64,000 bases of DNA from an uncultured delta proteobacterium. Lineage in GTDB: Bacteria > Desulfobacterota > Deferrimicrobia > Deferrimicrobiales > Deferrimicrobiaceae. The notes below the pieces were generated by a model, which was given only the letters and a program-made list of their open reading frames with translations, did no database searches and was not told the DNA's origin. Each line of letters starts with the position of its first letter. Position 1 is the first letter of the stretch. The DNA is taken from assembly GCA_963770975.1 (NCBI GenBank), contig CAVYRM010000008.1:79858-143857 (forward strand), given 5' to 3'. Positions 9,612-56,365 of this stretch are shown one piece after another. The position numbers were made by a program, and so were the translations under genes.

Positions 9612-12600
9612 GTGATCCCGTTCCTGTACCTGCTGTTCTTCCTGTCGGGCGCCGCCGCGTTGGCCTATCAGGTGGTGTGGGTCCGCTCCCTGCAACTCGT
9701 CTTCGGCGGTTCCCATTTTGCGGTAACGGCAGTCCTCTCCGTGTTCATGGCGGGCCTTGCGCTGGGAAGCCATCTCCTCGGGAAACGTGTCGACACTCTC
9801 CGAAGACCGCTGCGGCTATACGGCATCCTCGAGATCGGGATCGCCGTCTTCGCCGTTCTCTTTCTTCTCCTGACGAAATTTTATCCTTACCTTTACGTTC
9901 CCCTGTGCCCGTGTGGCGGAAGAAAACACCCTGTACCTGTCGTTTCTCCGCGTCATGTTCGCCGTGGTCGCGATGATCGTCCCCACCACGCTGATGGGGG
10001 GGACCCTGCCCGTATTGACGAAGTTCGCTTCGGAGCATTCCCGGGAGGCCGGGGAGCACGTTTCCTTCCTGTACGGGTTCAATACCCTGGGAGCCGTGGC
10101 CGGCACGCTGCTGGCCGGATTCGTCCTGCTGCCGCGATTTTCCGTCATCGGCACATCCGCCATCGCGATCGCCACGAACGCTTTTATCGGTCTCGCATCC
10201 ATCGCCCTTGCGCAAAGACGGGTTTTTTCGGAGGTTGAGGGTGCGGGATCTCCCCGGATCACCGGCTCGTCGCGAGGGAAAGCAACCAGGATAACCGCGC
10301 CAGAGAGTCCGCGGTTCCATCCGTTTCCGTCGAGCTGGTCCTCTGGGGGATCGGAATCAGCGGTTTCTGCGCCTTGGGGTACGAGGTTCTCTGGACCCGG
10401 GTCCTTTCGATGGTCGTCGGCGCCAGCGTATACAGTTTCACCGTCATGCTGGTGTCCTTTCTCACGGGAATCGCGCTCGGGAGCAAGGCGTTCGGCTTTT
10501 TCATAAGGAGGTTCCCGGGAGCGTGCGGGACGCCGGGAAGGGCGGTTCTGTTTTTCGGGGCCGTGCAGGTGCTCATCGGCCTCACCGCCCTGGTCGTTAC
10601 GTATTTCATCCGGGACCTTCCTTCCCACGCCATCCGGATCCAGAACTACCTGCTTGGAACCGGCATCAGCGAGTTCGAGGTCCGGCAGGGGGCGAACTTC
10701 GCGGTCGCCTTCTCCCACATGTTCATCCCGGCATTCTTCATGGGGGTGGCGTTTCCGCTGGCCGGAAAGATCCGTGTCGATGGCCGGAGGTCGGCCGGAG
10801 AGGCCATCGGGGAGGTTTCGGCGTATAACACGATCGGCGCGATCCTGGGTGCCGCCTTCAGCGGGTTCTTTTTGATCTACCTGTTCGGCATCGAGCGGTC
10901 GCTGCAATTCCTTGCCCTGATCAATGTGGGGGCAGGGATCCTGATCGCCGCCAGCGCGTGGAAGCGCCCGGTGGTGACGTGGGGGATCGCGGGGGCCACG
11001 GCCGCCGTCATCGCGATGCTGGCGCTTCACCCGGGTCTTTGGAGGATGTGGGACCTGAAATATTTCGCCATCTACCGCAACAACACGCGGGAAGCATTCA
11101 ACACGGCCTTCAACATGAAGGATGCGATGGAAAACACCGACGTGCTTTATTACGCCGAAGGCGTGCAGGCGACGGTGAGCGCGATCAAGGTGAAGGGCGG
11201 CTCCCAGGCGTTCATCACCAACGGGCGAATCGAGGCCTCGAACCAGAAGGAAGGGATCCAGTGCCAATACACCCTGGGCCACCTTCCCATGCTTCTGAAC
11301 AAAAACCCGAGGAAAGTGTTCGTGCTGGGCACGGGAAGCGGGATGACCCTCGGGGCGACTTCCGTGCACCCGAGCGTGGAAGAGATCGTCCTTGCGGAGA
11401 TCGAGCCGAAAGTCCTGGGAGTGGCGAGGACGTTTTCAAGGTACAACCACGATGTGCTCGACAATCCGAAGCTGCGGATCGTCTTCAACGACGGGCGAAA
11501 TTACCTGATGACCACGAAAAAGAAGTTCGACGTCATCACGGCGGACCCGATCCATCCCTGGTTCAGCGGCGCGGGCTATCTCTATACCGCGGAGTATTTC
11601 CGGCTGGCCGCGGAGCATCTCAACCCCGGCGGGATCGCCTGCCAGTGGCTTCCGATCTACGAATTGAGCGTGGACGACCTGAAATGCGTCGTGAAAACAT
11701 TCTCGGAGAATTTTCGATACACCATGCTCTGGCTGACCCGGAACGATGCGGAACTTGTGGGGAGCAACGATCCGATCGTCATCGACGAGGAGGAACTGGA
11801 ACGGCGTATCGCGGCGCCGGGAGTCTTCGACGATCTGAAGAGCGTCGACATGGGATCGGCGGATGATTTCCTCGCCTATTTCGTCATGGGAACGAAGGGA
11901 ATGAAAGAGTTCGGAGCGGGGGGAGTGATCAATACCGACGACAACCTGCATCTCGAATTTTCCGCCCCGATGTCCATGGATGTTCCCACCCAGGGGAGAG
12001 AACGCGCGACGCCCTGTACCGGTACCGGGAATCCCTGCTGCCTTACCTGCTTCCTGCAACGGGGATTGCCGCACGGAACGCCCAGATCGAACGGACCGAA
12101 CGGAATTTCCGGGCAGGCGAGAACATACGCCCTGGCGCATGTCCTGTTCCTGAGCGGTGGATCTGGAACCCCTGAATTTGCCAGAGATCATGGGAGAACT
12201 GGAACGCGACGTATCCGGAATATGCCCCCGTACAAGTTCCTGAAGGGCGAGGTTCGGGATCTGGTGGCAATGACCCCGACACTGATCCGTGCGGAGAAAT
12301 TTCATGATGCTGAACGATTCGGGCAGCAGCGTGGTCGTGGAAATCTCCGCGGTGAAGGTGCGCATCGGGGAGGAGAGGACGGCGGTGGTCTTCGTGGACA
12401 ATCGGACCCGGACGATATACGGACAGAAGTATATCGATGCGAAAAAGGAAGATCTTGGAGGAGGGAGTCCGGCGATATGCAGAGGATGTCTTGTCGAGTC
12501 TGAAGAGTACTTACCGGAGAGAAGCAGCCCTCGCGGTGCGTGATGGGAGGAAATATCCCTCTTGCGGAACACCACATTACGGAAAATCAAGTGAAATCAT

Positions 12601-33206: not shown

Positions 33207-34561
33207 AGGGAACGGTGCTCGTTGTCGACGACGAACGGAACCAGAGGGAGATCCTCGGGGCGATCCTGAAAAGCGAAGGGTACACTCCGTTGCTGGCCTC
33301 GGGGGGGGAGGAGGCGCTCCGTTCCCTCGAACGGGAGGCGGTCGACCTGGTGATCACCGACCTCGTCATGCCGGGGATGACGGGGGAGGAGCTGATCGAC
33401 GCGGTCCTGGCCCGCAACCCCGGGATCCCCATCCTGCTCACCAGCGCCTACGGCACGATCCAGACGGCGGTCGACGCGATCAAGAAGGGGGCGTACTACT
33501 ATTTCGAGAAGCCCGTCGACCGGGCGCGGCTTCTGATCATCGTGGAACGGGCGATCGAGAACCTCCGCCTCCGGGAATCCCACAGGGTGCTGTCCGAGAA
33601 GCTCTTCCCCGGCGCCATGCCGATCCTGGGCGAGCACCCGGCGATCCGTGAGATCAAGCGGATCCTTCCGCGCATCGCGAGGAGCGAGAGCACGATCCTC
33701 CTGACCGGCGAGAGCGGCACGGGGAAAGAGGTGATCGCGCGCAACATCCACTCCATGAGCGGCCGCTGCGCCGCCCCGTTCCTTGCGGTCAACTGCGCCT
33801 CCCTCCCCGACTCGCTGATCGAAAGCGAGCTGTTCGGTTACGAACGCGGCGCGTTCACCGGCGCAGTGCGGCGGGAGATCGGCCTGTTCGAGGCCGCCGG
33901 AGGAGGGACGATCTTCCTCGACGAGATCGCGGAGGTCAAGCTGGAGACCCAGGCGAAGCTCCTGCGCGCGTTGCAGGAAAAGGAGATCCGCCGGATCGGC
34001 GGGAAGGAGAACCTCCCCGTGGATGTCCGGATCGTCACGGCGACGAACCGGGACCTCGAGGAAGCGATGCGGGCAGGCAAGTTCCGGGCCGACCTCTTCT
34101 ACCGCCTGAACATCGTGAAGCTCACGCTACCCCCGTTGCGGGACCGCATCTCGGACATCCCGATCCTGGCGGAGCATTTCCTCGCCAAGCACGGGGAGAA
34201 GGGCGTTCCTCCCGTCAGGGAGGTGACGAAGGACGCGATGCGCCTCCTGATGCGGTATCCCTGGCCCGGAAACATCCGCGAGCTCTCCTCCGCCATCGAA
34301 CGGGCGGTCGTCCTGGCGGAAGGGGGGAAGATCAGTCCCGCCGAATTGCCGCTGGAGCTGCGGGAGGGGGCGGATGCCATACCCGCCCGGGCGTTCGACC
34401 TTCCGCCGCAGGGGGTGGAGTTCGAGAAGGTCGAGGAGCACCTGTTGCGGCAGGCAGTGGAACGGTCCGGCGGCGTGCATACGCGGGGGGCGGAACTCCT
34501 CCGCATGAGTTACAAGGCGTACATCTATCGGTTGAAGAAATTCGGCATCCTTCCCTCCTGA
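33203..34561 (+). CDS. Sigma-54-dependent response regulator (NtrC family: REC, AAA+, Fis-type HTH).
   Basis: It has the receiver VLVVDDERNQ...DLVITDLVMPGM, the Walker A GESGTGKE, the GAFTGA loop, ESELFGYERGAFTGA, RADLFYRLNIV, and the C-terminal HTH RGAELLRMSYKAYIYRLKKFGI. Confidence 0.9.
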   Translation: MKGTVLVVDDERNQREILGAILKSEGYTPLLASGGEEALRSLEREAVDLVITDLVMPGMTGEELIDAVLARNPGIPILLTSAYGTIQTAVDAIKKGAYYYFEKPVDRARLLIIVERAIENLRLRESHRVLSEKLFPGAMPILGEHPAIREIKRILPRIARSESTILLTGESGTGKEVIARNIHSMSGRCAAPFLAVNCASLPDSLIESELFGYERGAFTGAVRREIGLFEAAGGGTIFLDEIAEVKLETQAKLLRALQEKEIRRIGGKENLPVDVRIVTATNRDLEEAMRAGKFRADLFYRLNIVKLTLPPLRDRISDIPILAEHFLAKHGEKGVPPVREVTKDAMRLLMRYPWPGNIRELSSAIERAVVLAEGGKISPAELPLELREGADAIPARAFDLPPQGVEFEKVEEHLLRQAVERSGGVHTRGAELLRMSYKAYIYRLKKFGILPS

Positions 34562-34710: not shown

Positions 34711-34726
34711 TGGCATTCTACTTGAA
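34711..34726 (+). promoter_or_regulatory. Candidate sigma-54 promoter (imperfect -12 element).
   Basis: TGGCAT-N5-TTGAA has correct GG spacing, but the -12 element reads GA rather than GC. It lies about 50 nt upstream of ATG 34773. Confidence 0.35.
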
Positions 34727-49331: not shown

Positions 49332-50468
49332 ATGCGCGGGAGGGGGGCGTTCGGAAAGATCGCGGCGGTCCTCTTCGTTTTCGCCCTGGGGCTCTACGCC
49401 TCCCCGAAGGCGGCGGCCGCGTTCAAGAACGTCCAGACCGGGGCGGAAGCCCCGGCGTTCAAGCTGGCGGATCTCTCCGGGAACGAGGTCTCCCTCGAAA
49501 CGTTCAAGGGGGACAACGCCGTGATCCTCGTCTTCTGGGCCACCTGGAGCGGGCGCTCCCTCGACGAGCTCCGGGACGTCCAGAAACTCGTCGCCGAGTA
49601 CGGGCCGAAGGGGCTGAAGGCCGTCGCCGTCAACGTGGAACACGAACACACGACCGAGCGACGACCTGCGGATGATCCGGAGAAGGCCGCCTCCCTCAAC
49701 CTCACCTTCCCCGTGCTGCTCGACAAGGGGCTGGACACCTTCCGCAACTACGGCGTGGTGGCGGTTCCCTCCACCGGAACGCTCGGACGCGGGAACGTCC
49801 TCCGCGACGCCTTCAACGGGTACCCCTCTTTCGTCTTCCTCGAGCTGAAGTCGCAGGTCGAGACGCTGCTCGGCATGAAGCCGGTGGAAACCGCCGTCGC
49901 CGCGAAGGCCGACACCTCCCACAAGCCGACCCGCCCGGCGCTGCTCAACTACAACCTGGGCCGGCGGCTCTACGCGTTCGGCATGGCCGACAAGGCCGAA
50001 CCGAAGCTGCGGGCCGCGGCCGCGGCCGACCCGGCGTGGGCGGCGCCCAACGTCCTGCTGGGCGAGGTGCTCCTCTCCCGGTCGAAGAAGGATCCGGGCG
50101 AAGATCGCGGAGGCGAAGAAGGCGTTCGAGTCCGCCGTCGCGTCGGAGGAGGGGAACGTGGTGGCGCGCACCGGATTGGCCCGCGTATACTGGTCCTCCG
50201 GCCAGGCGGCCGACGCGGAGCGGGAGATCGACGCGGCGCTCAAGAGGAACGGGACGTACACGCCGGCCCTCCTGCTCAAGGCCGGCATCCTCGCCCGGAA
50301 GGGGGACGCTCCCCGGTGCGGAAAAGATGATCCGCGAGGCGATCGAGCTGAACGCGCGCGATCCGTCAGACCTACGCGCTCGCCGGCCGGGCCTACGAGG
50401 AGGGGAAGGATCTCGCGAAGGCCGCGGCGATGTACCGCAAGGCGTGGGAACTGAACGGGGAGCACTGA
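49332..50468 (+). CDS. Secreted thioredoxin-fold plus TPR fusion in which both active-site Cys are replaced by Ser (WSGRS). About three frame changes lie in the TPR part.
   Basis: The signal peptide is AAVLFVFALGLYASPKAAAA. The redoxin core APAFKLADLSGNEVSLETFKGDNAVILVFWATWSGRSLDEL...LTFPVLLDKG...VVAVPST reads SGRS where CxxC is expected. The TPR part is LLNYNLGRRLYAFGMADKAE..., VARTGLARVYWSSGQAADAE and ALAGRAYEEGKDLAKAAAMYRKA. Confidence 0.6.
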
Positions 50469-50610
50469 TGCAGCGGGTGCGCCGCCTTCATCGTGACGGC
50501 GGTTTCGGCGGCGTCGATCCTGGCGTACGGCATCTTCCGCGAGGAGATCGGCGAGGTGATGTTCAACGCCGCGATGCTTTGACTGTCGTGCATCGGGGTC
50601 GGGTGACTCC

Positions 50611-51476
50611 TTGGGATACCTGAAGCGCCGGATCTTCCAGGGGATGGGGGCCGTCCTCCCGAACTCCTACGTCCAGGGGTTCCTGACCGCGTCCCTCTAC
50701 CAGGGATCGCTCAAAAGCGTCTGCTCCCCGCTGCTCAACTGCTACGCCTGCCCGTCCGCCCTCTTCTCCTGCCCCATCGGCACGCTCCAGCACTTCATGG
50801 TGACCGGGAACGTCCCGTATTACGGCCTGGGGACCCTCTCCGTGGTCGGCGCCACGGTGGGGCGGATGACGTGCGGGACGCTGTGCCCCTTCGGTTTCCT
50901 GCAGGATCTCCTCTACAAGTTCCGGGCGTGGAAAGTCTCCATCCCCGTCTGGACGCGGTATTTCCGCTACGCGGTCCTGGTCGGGCTCGTCTTCCTCATC
51001 CCGTACCTCACCCACGAGAACTGGTTCTCGAAGCTGTGCCCGATGGGGACGCTGATCGGCGGCCTGCCGTGGGTCACCCTGAACGCCGAACGTCCGCTCG
51101 ATGATCCGCGCGCTGTTCTGGGTCAAGATCGCGATCCTGCTCTTCTTCGTCACCACCTCCACGATGGTGAAGCGCCCGTTCTGCCGCGCCGTCTGCCCGC
51201 TGGGGGCGATCTTCTCCCTGTTCAACAAGTCGAGCTTCCTGCAGCTCGCGTGGAACCCCGACACCTGCACGAAGTGCGGGAAGTGCCAGAAGATCTGCCC
51301 GGTGGACATCCGCCCCGACCGGAACCCGACGAACCCGGACTGCCTGCGGTGCCTCGACTGCACCCGGTGCCCGAGCCTCAAGCTCACCACGGTGTTCCAC
51401 CGGCGCCGTTCGACGCTCCCCGGTATCCCGCCGGTCGAGGCCACCGGGGCGGGCTACCGCAAGATCCGCCGCCTGA
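50611..51476 (+). CDS. NapH/MauN/NosR-type membrane polyferredoxin (4Fe-4S binding). At least two frame changes; the 3' end is uncertain.
   Basis: It has the CX3CP-type motifs LNCYACPSALFSCPIGTLQ, CGTLCPFGFLQD and FCRAVCPLGAIF, then the ferredoxin motifs CTKCGKCQKICP and CLRCLDCTRCP. A TGA at 51474-51476 in a third frame overlaps ATG 51476 (TGATG). That suggests a separate downstream kinase gene. Confidence 0.55.
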
Positions 51477-53003
51477 TGCTGCGGGCGGGTCCGGGCTCTC
51501 CGTTGCGGTTTCTGCCGAGCTCCCTCTTCTACAGGATGTCGCTCACCATCGGCGTCGTGCTGGTGGTCGTCTTCGGGATCTCTTCCTACCTCACCTACCG
51601 GATCCAGTCGGAACAGGCGTTGACCGCCACCAAGACCCAGGCGATCCTGCTCACCCGCGGCTTGAAGAACACGATCCGGATCGGCATGGAGTCCGGCCAC
51701 ACGGAGTCGCTCGCGTCGATCTTCCAGACGGTCGGCGCCTTGCCCGGCGTGGAGAAGCTGCGGGTCTTCAACGAGGAGGGGAAGATCCGGTACTCCGCGA
51801 AACCGGCCGAGGTCGGGCCACCTGACCGACGAGCTCGACTACACGGTGTACCGCAGCCCCGAGCGGAGCACGCCGTTCCAGAGCGAGGTGACCGGCCACC
51901 GGTCCTTCTGCATGGTGGAGCCGATCGAGAACGACGCGAAGTGCCGACGGTGCCACCCGAAGGAGATCGAGGTGCTCGGCGTGCTCGACGTCTGCCTCTC
52001 GATGGAGGACACGGAGAAGAGCATCGCGTTCAACCGCCTCCTCCTCCTCTCCTCCACCGGTCTCGCGCTGATCCTGACGTCGGGAATCATCAGCGTCCTC
52101 CTCAAGCGGTTCGTCTCCCGGCCGGTGGAACGTCTCGTGAAGACGATGGAGTCGGTGGAGGCCGGGAAGCTCGACGGCCGGGTGGACATCCGCAGCGGGG
52201 ACGAGCTGGGGCGCCTCGGGAACAGCTTCAACGAGATGATCCGGAAGCTTGTCGGATGCGCAGGACGAGCTCGAGAAGTTCCACCACAGGCAACTGGCGC
52301 GCGCCGACCGGCTGGCGTCCCTCGGCGAGATGGCGGCGGGGATCGCCCACGAGATCAAGAACCCGCTGGCCGGGATCTACGGCGCCGCCCAGGTCCTCGT
52401 CGACGAATTCCCGGAGGGGGACCCGAAGCGGGAGATCGTCGGGGAGATGATGGTCCTCCTGAAGCGCCTGGACAACACGATCAGGGACCTGCTGAACTTC
52501 GCGCGCTACACGGAGCCGCAATTCACGAAGGGGAACCTGAACGACGTGATCGACAAGGTCCTGTTCCTCGTCCAGCAGATCCCCGAGGGGAAGCGGGCGC
52601 GGATCGTCCGGGAGTTCGACCCCGGGATGCCGGAGATCGAGATGGACCAGGAGCAGGTGAAGCAGGTCTTCCTGAACCTGGCGCTCAACGCCCTCCAGGC
52701 GCGCCCCGACGGGGTGACGCTCACCATCCGCACGCGGGGAGACGTCCCCGCCGAGGGGGGCGACGGTGCGGCACCGCGCCCGCTACGTGATGGCGTCGGT
52801 GTCCGACGACGGCCCGGGGATCCCGCCGGACAAGCTGGGGAAGATCTTCCAGCCGTTCTTCACGACGAAGGAGAACGGCACGGGCCTCGGGCTCTCGATG
52901 ACCCGGAAGATCCTCGACCTGCACGAGGGAAGGATCACGGCGGAGAGCGAGGCCGGGAGGCGGCGCGACCTTCACCGTGTTCCTGCCGAAGGTGAAGCCG
53001 TGA
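51476..53003 (+). CDS. Sensor histidine kinase whose periplasmic domain carries a CxxCH heme-c motif (2TM, HAMP, HisKA, HATPase). About four frame changes.
   Basis: TM1 is [19 protein letters not shown]. The periplasmic segment ends in [31 protein letters not shown]2 is [22 protein letters not shown]. The HAMP segment is [41 protein letters not shown]. The H-box is [15 protein letters not shown], the N-box [10 protein letters not shown], and the G-boxes DDGPGI and GTGLGLS. The stop is at 53001-53003. Confidence 0.7.
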
Positions 53004-53075
53004 GATCCGGCTACGCCGATACCCGTTTACAATTTCCGGCGGACAGCTCCTTCCGGATCGGATATAATCGGGGCC

Positions 53076-54541
53076 ATGGCGCGATCGAGGATCCTCGTGG
53101 TGGACGACGAGCGGATGATCCGCTGGTCGATCCAGCAGACCCTTTCGAAGGACGGCCACGTCCGTGGCCGCCGTGGAGACGGGCGAGGAGGCGGTGGCGC
53201 AGGCGACCGACGAGATGCCCGACCTCGTCTTCCTCGACATCACCCTCCCGGGGATCGACGGCATCGAGGTGCTCCGGCGCCTCAAGGCCCTGGACCCGTC
53301 CGTCGCCGTCGTGATGGTCACCGCCACCGACGACCTGAAGACCGCCGTCGAGGCGATGCGCCTGGGCGCCTACGACTACGTCAGCAAGCCGTTCGACCTC
53401 GACCGCCTGCGGGTGATCGCCCAGAACGCGCTCGACCGTCACGAGTTGCGCCAGGAGGTCGAGTTCCACCGGAAGGAGTCGGTGAAGCGGTACGGGTTCC
53501 ACCGGATCGTCGGTTCGAGCCGGAAACTCGCGGAAGTGGTCGAGGTGGCGAGGAAGGTGGCGAAATCGGACGCCGCGACCGTGCTGCTCCAGGGGGAGAG
53601 CGGCGTCGGGGAAGGACCTGTTCGCCCAGGCGATCCATTACGAGAGCGCCCGCGCCACGCGGCCCGTTCATCCCGATCAACTGCACCGCCCTGCCCGAGG
53701 AACTGCTCGAATCCGAGCTGATGGGGCACGAGAAAGGCGCCTTCACGGACGCGAAGTTCGCGAAGAAGGGGCTCTTCGAGGTGGCCGACGGCGGGACGAT
53801 CTTCCTCGACGAGATCGGCGACATGAAGCCCGGCCTCCAGGCGAAGCTCCTGCGCTTCATCGAGAACAAGGTCTTCCGCCGGGTCGGCGGGCACCGGGAC
53901 ATCTCCGTCGACGTCCGCATCGTGGCGGCGACGAACCGGAACCTCGACGAGCTCGTCCGCACGGGGCGAGTTCCGGGAAGACCTCTTCTTCCGGCTGAAC
54001 GTGATCCCGATCCGCATCCCGCCCCTGCGGGAGCGCCGCGAGGACATCCTGCCCCTGGCGGAGCATTTCTTCTCCGAGTTTTCCAACGACATCCGGAGGC
54101 CCGGGAGCGGTTTCTCGGACCTCGCGAAGCGCCAGATGACGGCGTACGACTGGCCGGGGAATGTCCGCGAGATGCGGAATATCATCGAGCGCGCGCTGAT
54201 CCTCGGCGCGGCGGGCATCGTGGAGCGCCTCGACCTCCCCGTGCCGACCGGGGCGCCGGAGCGTCCCGGGCGTCCCTGGCCGGACCGGCTCCTCCCCGAA
54301 CCGGCCCGGGTGGGGAGCCGATTCGCATCCCCGGGGATCGGAGCCCTCATCCGGCGGCGCCGGCCGGAGCGGACACGGATTCCGCCTCCCGCCCTCCGGG
54401 ATCGTGCTCGAGGACCTCGAACGGGACCTCCTGCTCCAGGCGCTGGAGACGACCCAGGGGAACCAGACGAAAGCGGCGGAGATGCTCGGCCTCACCCGGG
54501 ACGCCCTCCGGTACCGGATGAAGAAATTCGGCTTCCTGTAA
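53076..54541 (+). CDS. Sigma-54-dependent response regulator (NtrC family), with at least five frame changes.
   Basis: It has the receiver [12 protein letters not shown]...[14 protein letters not shown]...YDYVSKPFD, the AAA+ core [11 protein letters not shown]...[15 protein letters not shown]...[12 protein letters not shown]...[11 protein letters not shown]...[19 protein letters not shown], and the [29 protein letters not shown] (stop 54539-54541). Confidence 0.8.
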
Positions 54542-54599
54542 TCGCTCGTCTGATCGCTCGTCCCCGGACAAGTGGGGGATATCCCCCTCCACCGTATAA

Positions 54600-54660
54600 G
54601 GTTCACACCGAATTCTCTATATAACTGATCGTATTCACACCGGAATTCGATCGGGGTGTA
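54600..54660 (+). promoter_or_regulatory. Candidate enhancer-binding sites upstream of the sigma-54 promoter.
   Basis: TTCACACCGAATTC (54600-54613) and TTCACACCGGAATTC (54634-54648) form a direct repeat separated by an AT-rich stretch. An inverted GGGGTGTA follows at about 54653-54660. Confidence 0.35.
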
Positions 54661-54671
54661 TCCCGGTGCGT

Positions 54672-54687
54672 TGGCATCAAACATGCT
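54672..54687 (+). promoter_or_regulatory. Near-consensus sigma-54 (-24/-12) promoter for the FN3/NHL-cytochrome operon.
   Basis: TGGCAT-CAAAC-ATGCT has exact GG-N10-GC spacing. It lies 20 nt upstream of a strong ribosome-binding site (AGGAGGGGG) and ATG 54707, immediately downstream of a sigma-54 activator gene. Confidence 0.6.
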
Positions 54688-54706
54688 GGATAAGAGGAGG
54701 GGGCAG

Positions 54707-56365
54707 ATGGGAACCGTCATGTGCGTTAAATCACGCAGAACAGGAGGCGCGAACGTGAACCAGAGGGGGATTTCGAAAGTGAAAAACGTGTCGAAGTATG
54801 CTACGGCGTGCGTGCTGGCATTGGCGATGTTCGCGGCTGCGGGAAGCGGCGGCGGCCGCTCTTGCCGGCGCCCAACTGGATGCCGGGTTCTCCGATCATG
54901 GCGGGGACCCAGGTCATCCTGCTCTGGCTGCCCATCCCGAACGCCGTGAAATACAACATCTACCTCAACGGGAAGAAGATCGGTGAATCCCCCGCGGTGC
55001 AGTACATGATGGCCTCTCCGACCGAGTCCGGGAGAATATTCGATCCTGATCGCGGCTGTGGATGCCGCCGGGGCGGAGGGTGCGAAGTCGGCCCCCGGCG
55101 TCATCCGGATCGTGACGGTGAATCCCCCCGCCTCGGTCTACGGCCGGGTAATGGAGAACAAGGTCCAACTCAAGTGGGACCAGGCCAAAGGCGCCGTAAT
55201 CTACAACGTGTACCGGGCCGACAAGGAGACGGGGGAGGCCAAGCTCCTCTCCTCGGTCCAGAGCGACGCCTATACCGATTCGGCGGTTCAGCAGGGGAAG
55301 GCGTACTTCTACTCCGTCACCGCGAAAGACCTCGCGGGGAAAGAAAGCGCCAAATCGAAACCATACCGCATCGAGGTCCCCCTGCCGCAGTCCGCCGCAG
55401 TGAAGGAGGCCAAGGTCGAGATCAAGGTCGTCGCGACGAACCCCGTGGCGGAGAGCCTCTTCCTCGGATCGAAAAAGATCGAGATGTTCGGCGACATGAA
55501 GCCCGGCCCGGACGGCCACATCTATGTGCTCGACGCCGGCCAGAGGCAGGTCCTGAAACTCGAACCCAAATCCCTCGAAGTCGTCTCGGTCTTCCCCTCC
55601 ACGCCGGAGGAGAAGGAGAAGATGAGACGCCCCCTCTCCATCGGATTTACCTCCGACGGGCGGGCCTTCATCGTGGACCCATTCGCCCGGAAGGTTTTCG
55701 TTTTCGACGCCGCCGGGAAGATGGTGTCCGAATTCCCGGTCCCCGCGCCGACCGACAAGGAGGTCGTCCAGAACGTCCTGCCGCACCTCCGGGACCAGGG
55801 GATTTTCCCGTCCGGGATCCATGTGGACGAGAAGGAGAAGACGATCTGGATCACCGACCCCCGGTTCAACACGATCTACCGGTTCGACCTCGACGGGAAA
55901 TTCCTCGGGAACCTGGGGCACGGAGGGGACCCCGAACAGTACTTCGCCGGGCCGGGCGAAATCCTTGCGGACCGCAACGGCACCGACCTCTACGTCACGG
56001 AGCCTCTGGCCCACATCGTCCTGGTGATCGACCGGAATAACGGCAAGATCAAGCGGATGATCGGGAGGAAGGCGTCGGGCTTCATCGGGGGCTTCATCGG
56101 TCAATCGGGGATTACCTACGACCCGGAAGGAAACGTGGTGATCTCCGACGCCGGGGTCCATTCGATCCAGGTCTTCGACGGAAAGACGGGGGCGTACCTC
56201 TACCACTTCGGGGACGAGTCCGGAAAAGTGGATCCGAAGATGACGGAGCGGGCGCTCCTGGGAATCGAGATGCCGAACCGGGCGTTCGTCCGCGGGAACA
56301 TGCTCTACATCTTCCGGGCCGACAAGATGAACGTCGTCTCCCGGGAAATCGTGAAGAAGAAGTAG
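54707..56365 (+). CDS. Secreted protein with two fibronectin-III-like domains and a C-terminal NHL-repeat beta-propeller. About three frame changes lie in the first 350 nt.
   Basis: The signal-like N-terminus is YATACVLALAMFAAAGS. The FN3-like segments are ILLWLPIPNAVKYNIYLNGKKIGES and VQLKWDQAKGAVIYNVYRADKETGE...YFYSVTAKDLAGKES. The NHL-like repeats are DGHIYVLDAGQRQVLKL, SDGRAFIVDPFARKVFVFD, KTIWITDPRFNTIYRFD, GTDLYVTEPLAHIVLVID and EGNVVISDAGVHSIQVFD. Confidence 0.7.

Follow-up and report, generated by a model that had tools for sequence, protein, structure and literature searches.

The stretch of DNA analysed here, referred to as the window, comprises 64,000 nucleotides of an uncultured delta proteobacterium (contig CAVYRM010000008.1, positions 79,858 to 143,857). 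On its + strand, at 50.4-54.8 kb, lie a small open reading frame (ORF), a NapH-like membrane polyferredoxin gene, a sensor histidine kinase gene, an NtrC-type regulator gene, a 166-nt spacer and the first gene of a cytochrome operon. These genes probably form a two-component sigma-54 cascade that leads from a heme-carrying kinase to an operon for an OmcE-like cytochrome; the cytochrome island around them is conserved, and the bacterium is Deferrimicrobiaceae-like (MBNT15). The initial annotation had proposed a complete sensor-to-promoter path at this locus. Comparison with related loci gives good support to its sensor, regulator and promoter; the direct repeats named as regulator binding sites and the sensing role given to the polyferredoxin have fared less well.

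How might the cascade operate? Its course, from heme attachment and the signal through phosphotransfer to the binding site and the transcription start, is predicted as follows. The kinase would cross the inner membrane twice and expose a single-Cache (PAS-like) domain to the periplasm, with one covalent c-type heme on Cys147/Cys150; His151 would be its proximal ligand, and the distal one is likely the near-invariant Met62. The System II genes resB and ccsA, whose products would attach the heme, lie upstream in the same island at a distance of a few kb. The heme might be oxidised or reduced by the pool of periplasmic cytochromes, or might bind a small ligand; either change would be passed through the second transmembrane helix (TM2) and the HAMP domain to the DHp/CA core, and the kinase would thereby set the phosphorylation of the adjacent NtrC-type regulator. 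The phosphorylated regulator would most likely bind the palindrome GTGGGGGATATCCCCC, centred ~117 nt upstream of the predicted start, and spend ATP to open the sigma-54 holoenzyme complex at TGGCAT-N5-ATGCT. The operon would then be switched on, with an NHL-propeller gene first, followed by that of the OmcE-like 14-heme cytochrome.

The system is real but conventional, and no part of it is new in kind. Its interest lies elsewhere. Heme-c Cache sensors are widespread and the gene set that they control is known for almost none of them; here the likely target, an OmcE-like "wire" cytochrome and its folding helpers in a phylum predicted to be iron-reducing, can be read from the conserved gene order and the promoter. 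The locus thus offers a concrete example of the control by which bacteria time the construction of their machinery for extracellular electron transfer. A parallel is found in Geobacter sulfurreducens, where the sigma-54 regulator BccR induces the cbcBA operon as the redox potential falls (bioRxiv 10.1101/2021.04.15.440034). Both systems have a regulator with a REC domain, a sigma-54 AAA+ domain and a helix-turn-helix (HTH), positioned beside the -24/-12 promoter of a respiratory multiheme cytochrome operon. They differ in that bccR is divergently transcribed, with no kinase named in that report, and in that the BccR target is an inner-membrane bc-type quinol oxidoreductase, whereas here it is an OmcE-like secreted cytochrome with folding helpers. 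The likeness is one of regulatory logic, in which BccR is the nearest studied analogue.

Frame breaks and gene order

In the raw letters each gene is split over five to six reading frames, with ~11-12 single-base breaks in ~4 kb. Are these genes decayed, or is the assembly at fault? Short-read contigs of close relatives have one base fewer at 50480, 51088/51090, 51416, 51819, 52249, 52950, 53160, 53608 and 53661/53666, and in this comparison the positions with an extra base in the window are the frame junctions. The density of breaks is equal in every gene of the 47-60 kb region. As the extra bases are missing from the relatives' contigs exactly at the junctions and the density is the same in all genes, the breaks are almost certainly single-base insertion errors of a long-read-type assembly and no mark of gene decay. 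That the breaks are genuine, the genes pseudogenes and the system dead in this genome is hardly credible: ~11 frame breaks within 4 kb would favour it, but it is opposed by the uniform break density in the window's genes, by the nature of the listed breaks (all are single extra bases relative to the short-read contigs, and all at junctions), by the lack of in-frame stops or large deletions inside domains, and by the amino acid identity of at least 90% that each frame piece shows to intact orthologues. Over the whole window, single-base insertions occur about every 350-450 nt of coding DNA, and any gene call or motif spacing may be affected by them.

Comparisons were made with 112 fetched loci (L numbers below); the polyferredoxin-kinase order was assessed in 27 loci and the stretch past the regulator in 11. 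The gene order of the island, ~20 kb in all, is kept in relatives with 67-93% kinase identity. It runs from a GltD-like gene, a c3 cytochrome, resB, ccsA, a 15-heme cytochrome and TlpA/TPR genes to the polyferredoxin, kinase and regulator, and on to the NHL gene, the OmcE-like cytochrome and thioredoxin genes. Several of the kinase homologues are labelled Candidatus Deferrimicrobiaceae or Thermodesulfobacteriota. An Rfam search of 50300-54900 gave no matches.

A sensor kinase with a domain of the heme-c family

The kinase gene (51476-52998, + strand) encodes, after four frame corrections, a protein of ~498 amino acids with the order TM1, sCache_heme, TM2, HAMP, HisKA and HATPase_c; the codon of the HisKA His is at 52348-52350. 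Over its first 260 residues the protein is 92% identical to many intact 498-residue metagenome proteins. The single CxxCH reported between two membrane helices is indeed found there, as CRRCH (51942-51956), between TM1 (~51542-51604) and TM2 (~52029-52103). Would frame correction move it to the cytoplasm? It does not; the motif is periplasmic, between hydrophobic segments at residues 12-32 and 175-198, and basic residues are present on the N-terminal side of TM1 and after TM2.

Several lines of comparison identify the domain. Profile PF21563 scores 30.5 bits on the intact orthologue P0001, against a gathering cut-off of 27, and 24.1 on the window's own fragment, the lower value arising because a frame break truncates the domain. 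The domain also matches PDB 3B42 (GSU0935), with E values of 8e-4 by sequence and 5e-5 by profile, and CRRCH aligns with the CQSCH of 3B42 and 3B47. An AlphaFold model of the domain alone (mean pLDDT, the predicted local distance difference test, of 85) places CxxCH on a helix, residues 145-149, between strands. With this model Foldseek finds 3B42 first (E 5e-7), followed by the sCache domains of WalK, CitA, DcuS and DctB, with TM-scores up to 0.73; with the full-length kinase model the fold search returns kinase cores only, ZraS being the best core match. Prominent among the conserved residues are C147, C150 and H151, invariant in 47/47 homologues down to 28% identity, with exactly one CxxCH per protein. 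M62 is found in 46 of these, and an extra cysteine pair, C136/C164, in 32-33 of the 47. Since PF21563 scores above its cut-off, 3B42 is matched by sequence, profile and fold, and CxxCH is invariant, the domain is, as judged from these comparisons, a member of the heme-c Cache/PAS-like family (GSU0935/GSU0582, sCache_heme).

This family was described for Geobacter chemoreceptors (PMC8396549) and has recently been redefined as sCache_heme, with ~20,000 sequences and with histidine kinases among the outputs (bioRxiv 10.64898/2026.02.01.703092). The kinase shares with GSU0935 and GSU0582 (3B42, 3B47; PF21563) a single Cache/PAS-like fold between two TM helices, a CxxCH carried by a short helix that precedes the last strands, and a HAMP domain that follows. 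It differs in its output, a histidine kinase and not a chemoreceptor, in an identity of only ~22%, in the C136/C164 pair present in most members of its own family, and in having a target operon that can be named from the gene context, which is not so for the Geobacter proteins.

A scan of genome contigs with the full kinase alignment returned only unrelated kinases, the generic kinase motifs of the alignment having dominated. Of interest is a more distant case, at L108 (8001-14377): a kinase of 31% identity whose outer domain bears two heme motifs and which, together with a sigma-54 regulator, stands upstream of a CbcL-like cytochrome c/cytochrome b fusion. This arrangement suggests that a heme sensor kinase and a sigma-54 regulator upstream of cytochrome genes may be a theme wider than this lineage.

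What does the heme perceive? The initial annotation had the system respond to redox state. This is unproven, as published members of the sCache_heme family bind nitric oxide (NO). It is conceivable, if rather unlikely, that the same cascade responds through its heme to a small gas (NO, O2 or CO) and not to the periplasmic redox poise, in which case the operon would be switched by oxygen or nitrosative conditions. Such a reading gains from the Pseudomonas sCache_heme members, which bind NO and have sensor-like spectra (bioRxiv 10.64898/2026.02.01.703092), and from the prediction that the lineage is a facultative anaerobe with several oxidases (PMC9386147). Redox sensing is favoured by the closest solved relatives, GSU0582 and GSU0935, which have been read as redox-potential sensors with a Met on/off switch (PMC8396549), by the near-invariance of Met62 in the kinase family, and by the targets, which are cytochromes of extracellular electron transfer, as in the redox-responsive BccR system.

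The activator and a probable sigma-54 promoter

The regulator gene (53076-54540, + strand; about five frame corrections) encodes an NtrC-type sigma-54 enhancer-binding response regulator, as the initial annotation had it. All domains are present: pieces from the window match Response_reg, Sigma54_activat (1.5e-42) and AAA_lid_14, the REC Asp (codon 53236-53238) is contained in FLDITLPG, and the intact orthologue additionally matches HTH_8, a Fis-type HTH (4.6e-16). By tblastn, residues 1-494 of that orthologue are covered in the window. The sigma-54 contact loop, tested against GAFTGA, reads GAFTDA (53736-53753) in the window, as it does in each of the 15 other fetched loci that extend to it; GAFTDA is also present in four unrelated activators among the fetched loci. 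Kinase and regulator genes adjoin in 11/11 loci that extend far enough.

The best NCBIfam matches are AtoS/ZraS/NtrB for the kinase core and AtoC/NtrC/ZraR for the regulator, so that in kinase core class and regulator architecture the pair resembles NtrB/NtrC, AtoS/AtoC and ZraS/ZraR. It is unlike them in its sensor domain, which is unrelated, and in the GAFTDA loop. All scores, moreover, are below the equivalog cut-offs (for the regulator AtoC 472 vs 714, NtrC 427 vs 559, ZraR 372 vs 760), and because they fall so far short the pair is taken, on profile evidence, not to be orthologous to any of these systems.

The promoter lies beyond the regulator gene. The -24/-12 element TGGCAT-N5-ATGCT (TGGCATCAAACATGCT; 54672-54687, + strand), noted from the outset, is borne out as the sole match to TGGCAY-N5-WTGCW in 64 kb, with 0.03 expected and a match in 3/100 shuffles. 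It agrees with TGGCAC-N5-TTGCW at 9/11 specified positions, has its GG and GC doublets exactly 10 nt apart, and is intergenic. The element is conserved in relatives or replaced by an equivalent. In L003 and L085, TGGCACCGAAAATGCT and the GGAGGGGGCAGATGG that follows are conserved islands in an otherwise unalignable spacer, and equivalent elements take its place in L084, L087, L093, L095, L100 and L101. Where a peptidyl-prolyl isomerase (PPIase) gene directly follows the regulator, as in L001 and L086, a -24/-12 element is found before the cytochrome gene instead. A loose -24/-12 pattern has 23 matches in 428 kb of family loci; ten of these fall within 350 nt after the regulator gene, a zone that makes up 0.9% of the sequence, and they cover 9/11 loci. 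The conserved start of the transcript (54696-54757, + strand) contains GGAGGGGGCAGATGG (54696-54710), invariant in the window, L003 and L085. The first operon gene could begin at ATG 54707 or at GTG 54755, the latter preceded by AGGAGG.

Two relatives point to exchange around a retained promoter. L084, whose kinase is the closest to that of the window among loci reaching past the regulator, has a different element, CGGCATATTGTTTGCA, at the same position. Its spacer (12094-12335) and the downstream NHL gene are AT-rich, and the NHL protein shares only ~28% identity with its L003 counterpart; for these reasons the target cassette of L084 is best seen as exchanged by recombination, with a sigma-54-type element retained. 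In contig X9 the 3' end of the regulator gene and 54670-54757 are kept, with 151 unrelated bases between them.

A regulator promoter of another kind is also present. A sigma-70-like sequence, CGGACA-17-TATAAT (53040-53068, + strand), ends 7 nt before the regulator ATG. The 78-nt gap before the regulator contains, within 53000-53075, a -10 box, GGATATAAT, and an upstream palindrome, GCATACCGTATGC/AC, conserved in 8/10 orthologous gaps. The regulator may then also be made from its own transcript, and this transcript is possibly leaderless given that the -10 box ends only 7 nt before the ATG. The palindrome, GCATACCGTATGC in its L003 form, lies ~40 nt upstream and may be an operator.

Palindrome or direct repeats?

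Which sequence does the activator bind? The 166-nt spacer offers two candidates. The first is the palindrome GTGGGGGATATCCCCCTCCAC (54572-54592, + strand), a candidate upstream activating sequence (UAS). Its core, GGGGGATATCCCCC (54574-54587), is 98 nt upstream of the -24 T. L001 and L002 each have an exact copy of the 14-mer, which there precedes a different -24/-12-like element by 97 nt, in a spacer that separates other genes and has non-homologous flanks; in L002 the palindrome is perfect over 22 bp. A copy with two mismatches, GGGGGATTTCCCTC, is present in L003 at -99. The second candidate consists of two direct repeats (54602-54648, + strand), TTCACACCGAATTC at 54602-54615 and TTCACACCGGAATTC at 54634-54648, 32 nt apart, which the initial annotation had proposed as the sites of the regulator. 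The repeats themselves stand: TTCACACCG is present at 54602 and 54634 and nowhere else in the 64 kb, where 0.45 copies are expected. As binding sites they do not hold up as well, since they are found in 0/112 fetched loci. The short-read contig X1, 94% identical, has nine substitutions in the spacer, none of them in the palindrome, the repeats or the promoter, and four of the nine are within the 18 nt between the repeats. K-mer and dyad searches of 8-10 orthologous spacers for a shared motif matching the direct repeats yielded nothing above shuffles except the palindrome.

The palindrome is ranked above the repeats because it recurs at the same promoter distance in non-homologous spacers and the repeats have no copies in the fetched loci; GTGGGGGATATCCCCC is thus most likely the primary enhancer site, as predicted from these comparisons. 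That the repeats TTCACACCG(G)AATTC are instead the activator sites, holding two dimers three helical turns apart, seems unlikely. Their exclusive occurrence as a pair in 64 kb, their integrity in the 94%-identical contig despite four substitutions in the 18 nt that separate the copies, and a weak TTC-N5/6-GAA dyad in each copy would fit such a role. Yet the repeats are absent from all 112 loci although the recognition helix of the regulator is unchanged, their centres at ~-57 and ~-89 are nearer the promoter than most enhancer sites, they occupy a position where the site of a bending protein is expected, and it is the palindrome at -117 that is conserved across non-homologous spacers. The repeats may constitute secondary sites or a lineage-specific architectural element.

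Several observations weigh against a sigma-54 cascade as proposed here, and should be set beside the evidence for it. The contact loop of the regulator is GAFTDA and not GAFTGA, though it is conserved as such. Among the Deferrisomatales relatives, neither a regulator gene nor a wire operon is found next to the kinase. At -12 the consensus TTGC is replaced by ATGC in the window and by TTGA or TTGT in several relatives. The start predicted ~11 nt after the -12 GC lies inside the GGAGG that precedes ATG 54707, which leaves a leader of only ~9 nt unless translation starts at GTG 54755. The orthologous spacers yielded no binding motif shared by all of them. Three RNA runs of a related study contain no read for the promoter and operon (54572-55300) and two for the 3' end of the regulator gene. 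Finally, the RpoN box is absent from the 64-kb window, a search of the whole genome for rpoN not being part of this analysis; in the window and all fetched loci together, the search for the box found only an unrelated Gemmatimonadaceae gene.

Elements with TTGA or TTGT at -12 are common in the lineage. They are found in the window at 34711 and in relatives at L093 4137, L095 9176, L100 5853, L086 16435 and L087 13358; one element of this type follows the window's second NtrC-type activator, which has GAFTGA at 33848.

The polyferredoxin and a cytochrome gene lost from the locus

The polyferredoxin gene (50611-51476, + strand) starts with TTG, ends with TGA at 51474-51476 and encodes a NapH-like membrane protein of ~288 residues after corrections near 51088-51090 and 51402-51455. 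The protein matches Fer4_5 (1e-12) and Fer4, is 95% identical to the L001 orthologue, and carries the motifs CGTLCP, CRAICP, CTKCGKCQKICP and CLRCLDCTRCP. In its four predicted TM helices, two CX3CP motifs and two C-terminal 4Fe-4S motifs it resembles the NapH/MauN ferredoxin subunits and the C-terminal half of NosR. It departs from these in its profile scores (60.7 vs a cut-off of 213 for TIGR02163; 53 vs 234 for NF007013; 37 vs 1000 for NosR), in four additional cysteines (C38, C44, C47, C54) that form a Cys loop within the outer loop predicted to come first, and in its conserved neighbourhood, made up of cytochrome-maturation genes, the heme-sensor kinase and a small membrane protein. No nap or mau genes are present in any locus examined, and no nap or nos genes lie near the polyferredoxin.

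Translational coupling to the kinase had been suggested from a TGATG overlap. After frame correction the overlap (51474-51478, + strand) is sound: TGA is the polyferredoxin stop and ATG is in the kinase frame, and the same in-frame overlap is present in L084 and L094. The kinase has three start candidates, i.e. ATG 51476, TTG 51509 (the MRFLP start of the 498-residue homologues) and ATG 51542 (the 487-residue form), and most homologues begin, with MRFLP, 11 codons after the ATG of TGATG. A fusion of the two proteins, which the raw letters would allow by read-through, was rejected: there is an extra base near 51450, relatives are one base shorter and stop at TGATG, and all homologues are separate proteins, with intact polyferredoxins of 284-296 residues and kinases of 487-501.

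The order of polyferredoxin and kinase is kept in 27/27 loci, including Deferrisomatales-type loci with a polyferredoxin identity of 55%, where the two genes adjoin without a regulator or wire operon. In 21 of the 27 a gene for an octaheme periplasmic cytochrome (~310 residues; e.g. L001 1845-2789, L091 2070-3011) is placed between them. It overlaps the polyferredoxin stop and ends 20-30 nt before the kinase. The gene is absent from the window (51440-51510) and from L084, L088, L090, L094 and L105. Could its absence be a collapse of the assembly? This was discarded, as five independent contigs also lack the gene, with junctions that differ and with remnants in some. At least three different junctions are seen, one of them shared by the window, L084 and L094; L088 (5950-6000) keeps six codons and L090 (1150-1250) both ends of the gene. 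Because the junctions differ and L088 and L090 retain remnants, the loss appears natural and recurrent.

What is the function of the polyferredoxin? A place for it in the sensing path, as first annotated, is favoured by its adjacency to the kinase, kept even at 55% identity, but homologues also stand beside ccmEFH, and the window copy follows ResB/CcsA and TlpA-like genes. In L109 (4886-5749) and L110 (7001-7864) a 56%-identical homologue occurs alone, divergent from ccmE-ccmF-ccmH-TPR (System I); such lone genes beside ccm genes hint that the family may serve cytochrome c biogenesis. A role in cytochrome maturation or electron input seems at least as likely as one in sensing. The polyferredoxin is a conserved neighbour of the kinase and is probably co-transcribed with it.

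There is a stronger form of the sensing proposal, in which the polyferredoxin is a working part of the sensor: as a NapH/NosR-like membrane Fe-S protein it would join the quinone or cytoplasmic reductant pool to the kinase heme, with the octaheme cytochrome as relay where present, and the kinase would report the state of the electron-transport chain. This is doubtful. In its favour are the order with the kinase in 27/27 loci, even without a regulator at 55% identity, the stop/start overlap TGATG in the window, and the octaheme cytochrome gene between the two in 21/27 loci. NosR, a relative of the NapH-like polyferredoxin, is required for nosZ expression, a precedent that also counts for the proposal. 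But homologues of ~56% identity stand alone beside ccmE/F/H, the gene follows, and may be co-transcribed with, the resB, ccsA, 15-heme cytochrome and TlpA-like genes, the intervening cytochrome was lost at least three separate times, and fusion proteins were not seen among the homologues.

One may go further and ask whether the conserved unit is the kinase-regulator pair at all. The small membrane protein, the NapH-like polyferredoxin and the heme-sensor kinase stay together as a trio in loci that lack the regulator and wire operon. If this trio were the unit, the polyferredoxin would be a relay devoted to carrying electrons across the membrane, and it would poise the periplasmic heme of the kinase against the internal reductant or quinone pool; it would do so through its additional Cys loop on the outer side and, in loci that have it, through the octaheme cytochrome. 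No diffusible signal would be sampled; the kinase would instead have a private redox connection to the respiratory chain. Such an arrangement is quite improbable.

The small ORF and a conserved hairpin

A small membrane protein and a hairpin precede the polyferredoxin gene everywhere in the loci compared. The small ORF (50468-50582, + strand), with an inserted base near 50480, encodes ~38 residues (…GIFREEIGEVMFNAAML*) and begins with an ATG that overlaps, as TGATG, with the stop of the TlpA/TPR gene before it. The C-terminus, conserved in L084, L087, L111 and L112, has an invariant …REEIGEVMFNAAML. The stop context of the ORF, CTT TGA C, equals the release factor 2 (RF2) frameshift site. A programmed +1 frameshift at this site, fusing the small ORF to the polyferredoxin, was considered and set aside, in that the frames misfit in L087, L111 and L112 and the topology would be inverted.

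The hairpin, GGGGTC-GGGT-GACTCC (50595-50610, + strand), is conserved and abuts the polyferredoxin start codon. In RNA form (GGGGUC-GGGU-GAYYCC) its six pairs are kept in 9/9 loci, the sole changes being from G-C to G-U, and it is found even in loci with 55% polyferredoxin identity. Within 50468-50610, ~75 nt are almost invariant as DNA across loci whose proteins are otherwise only ~80% identical.

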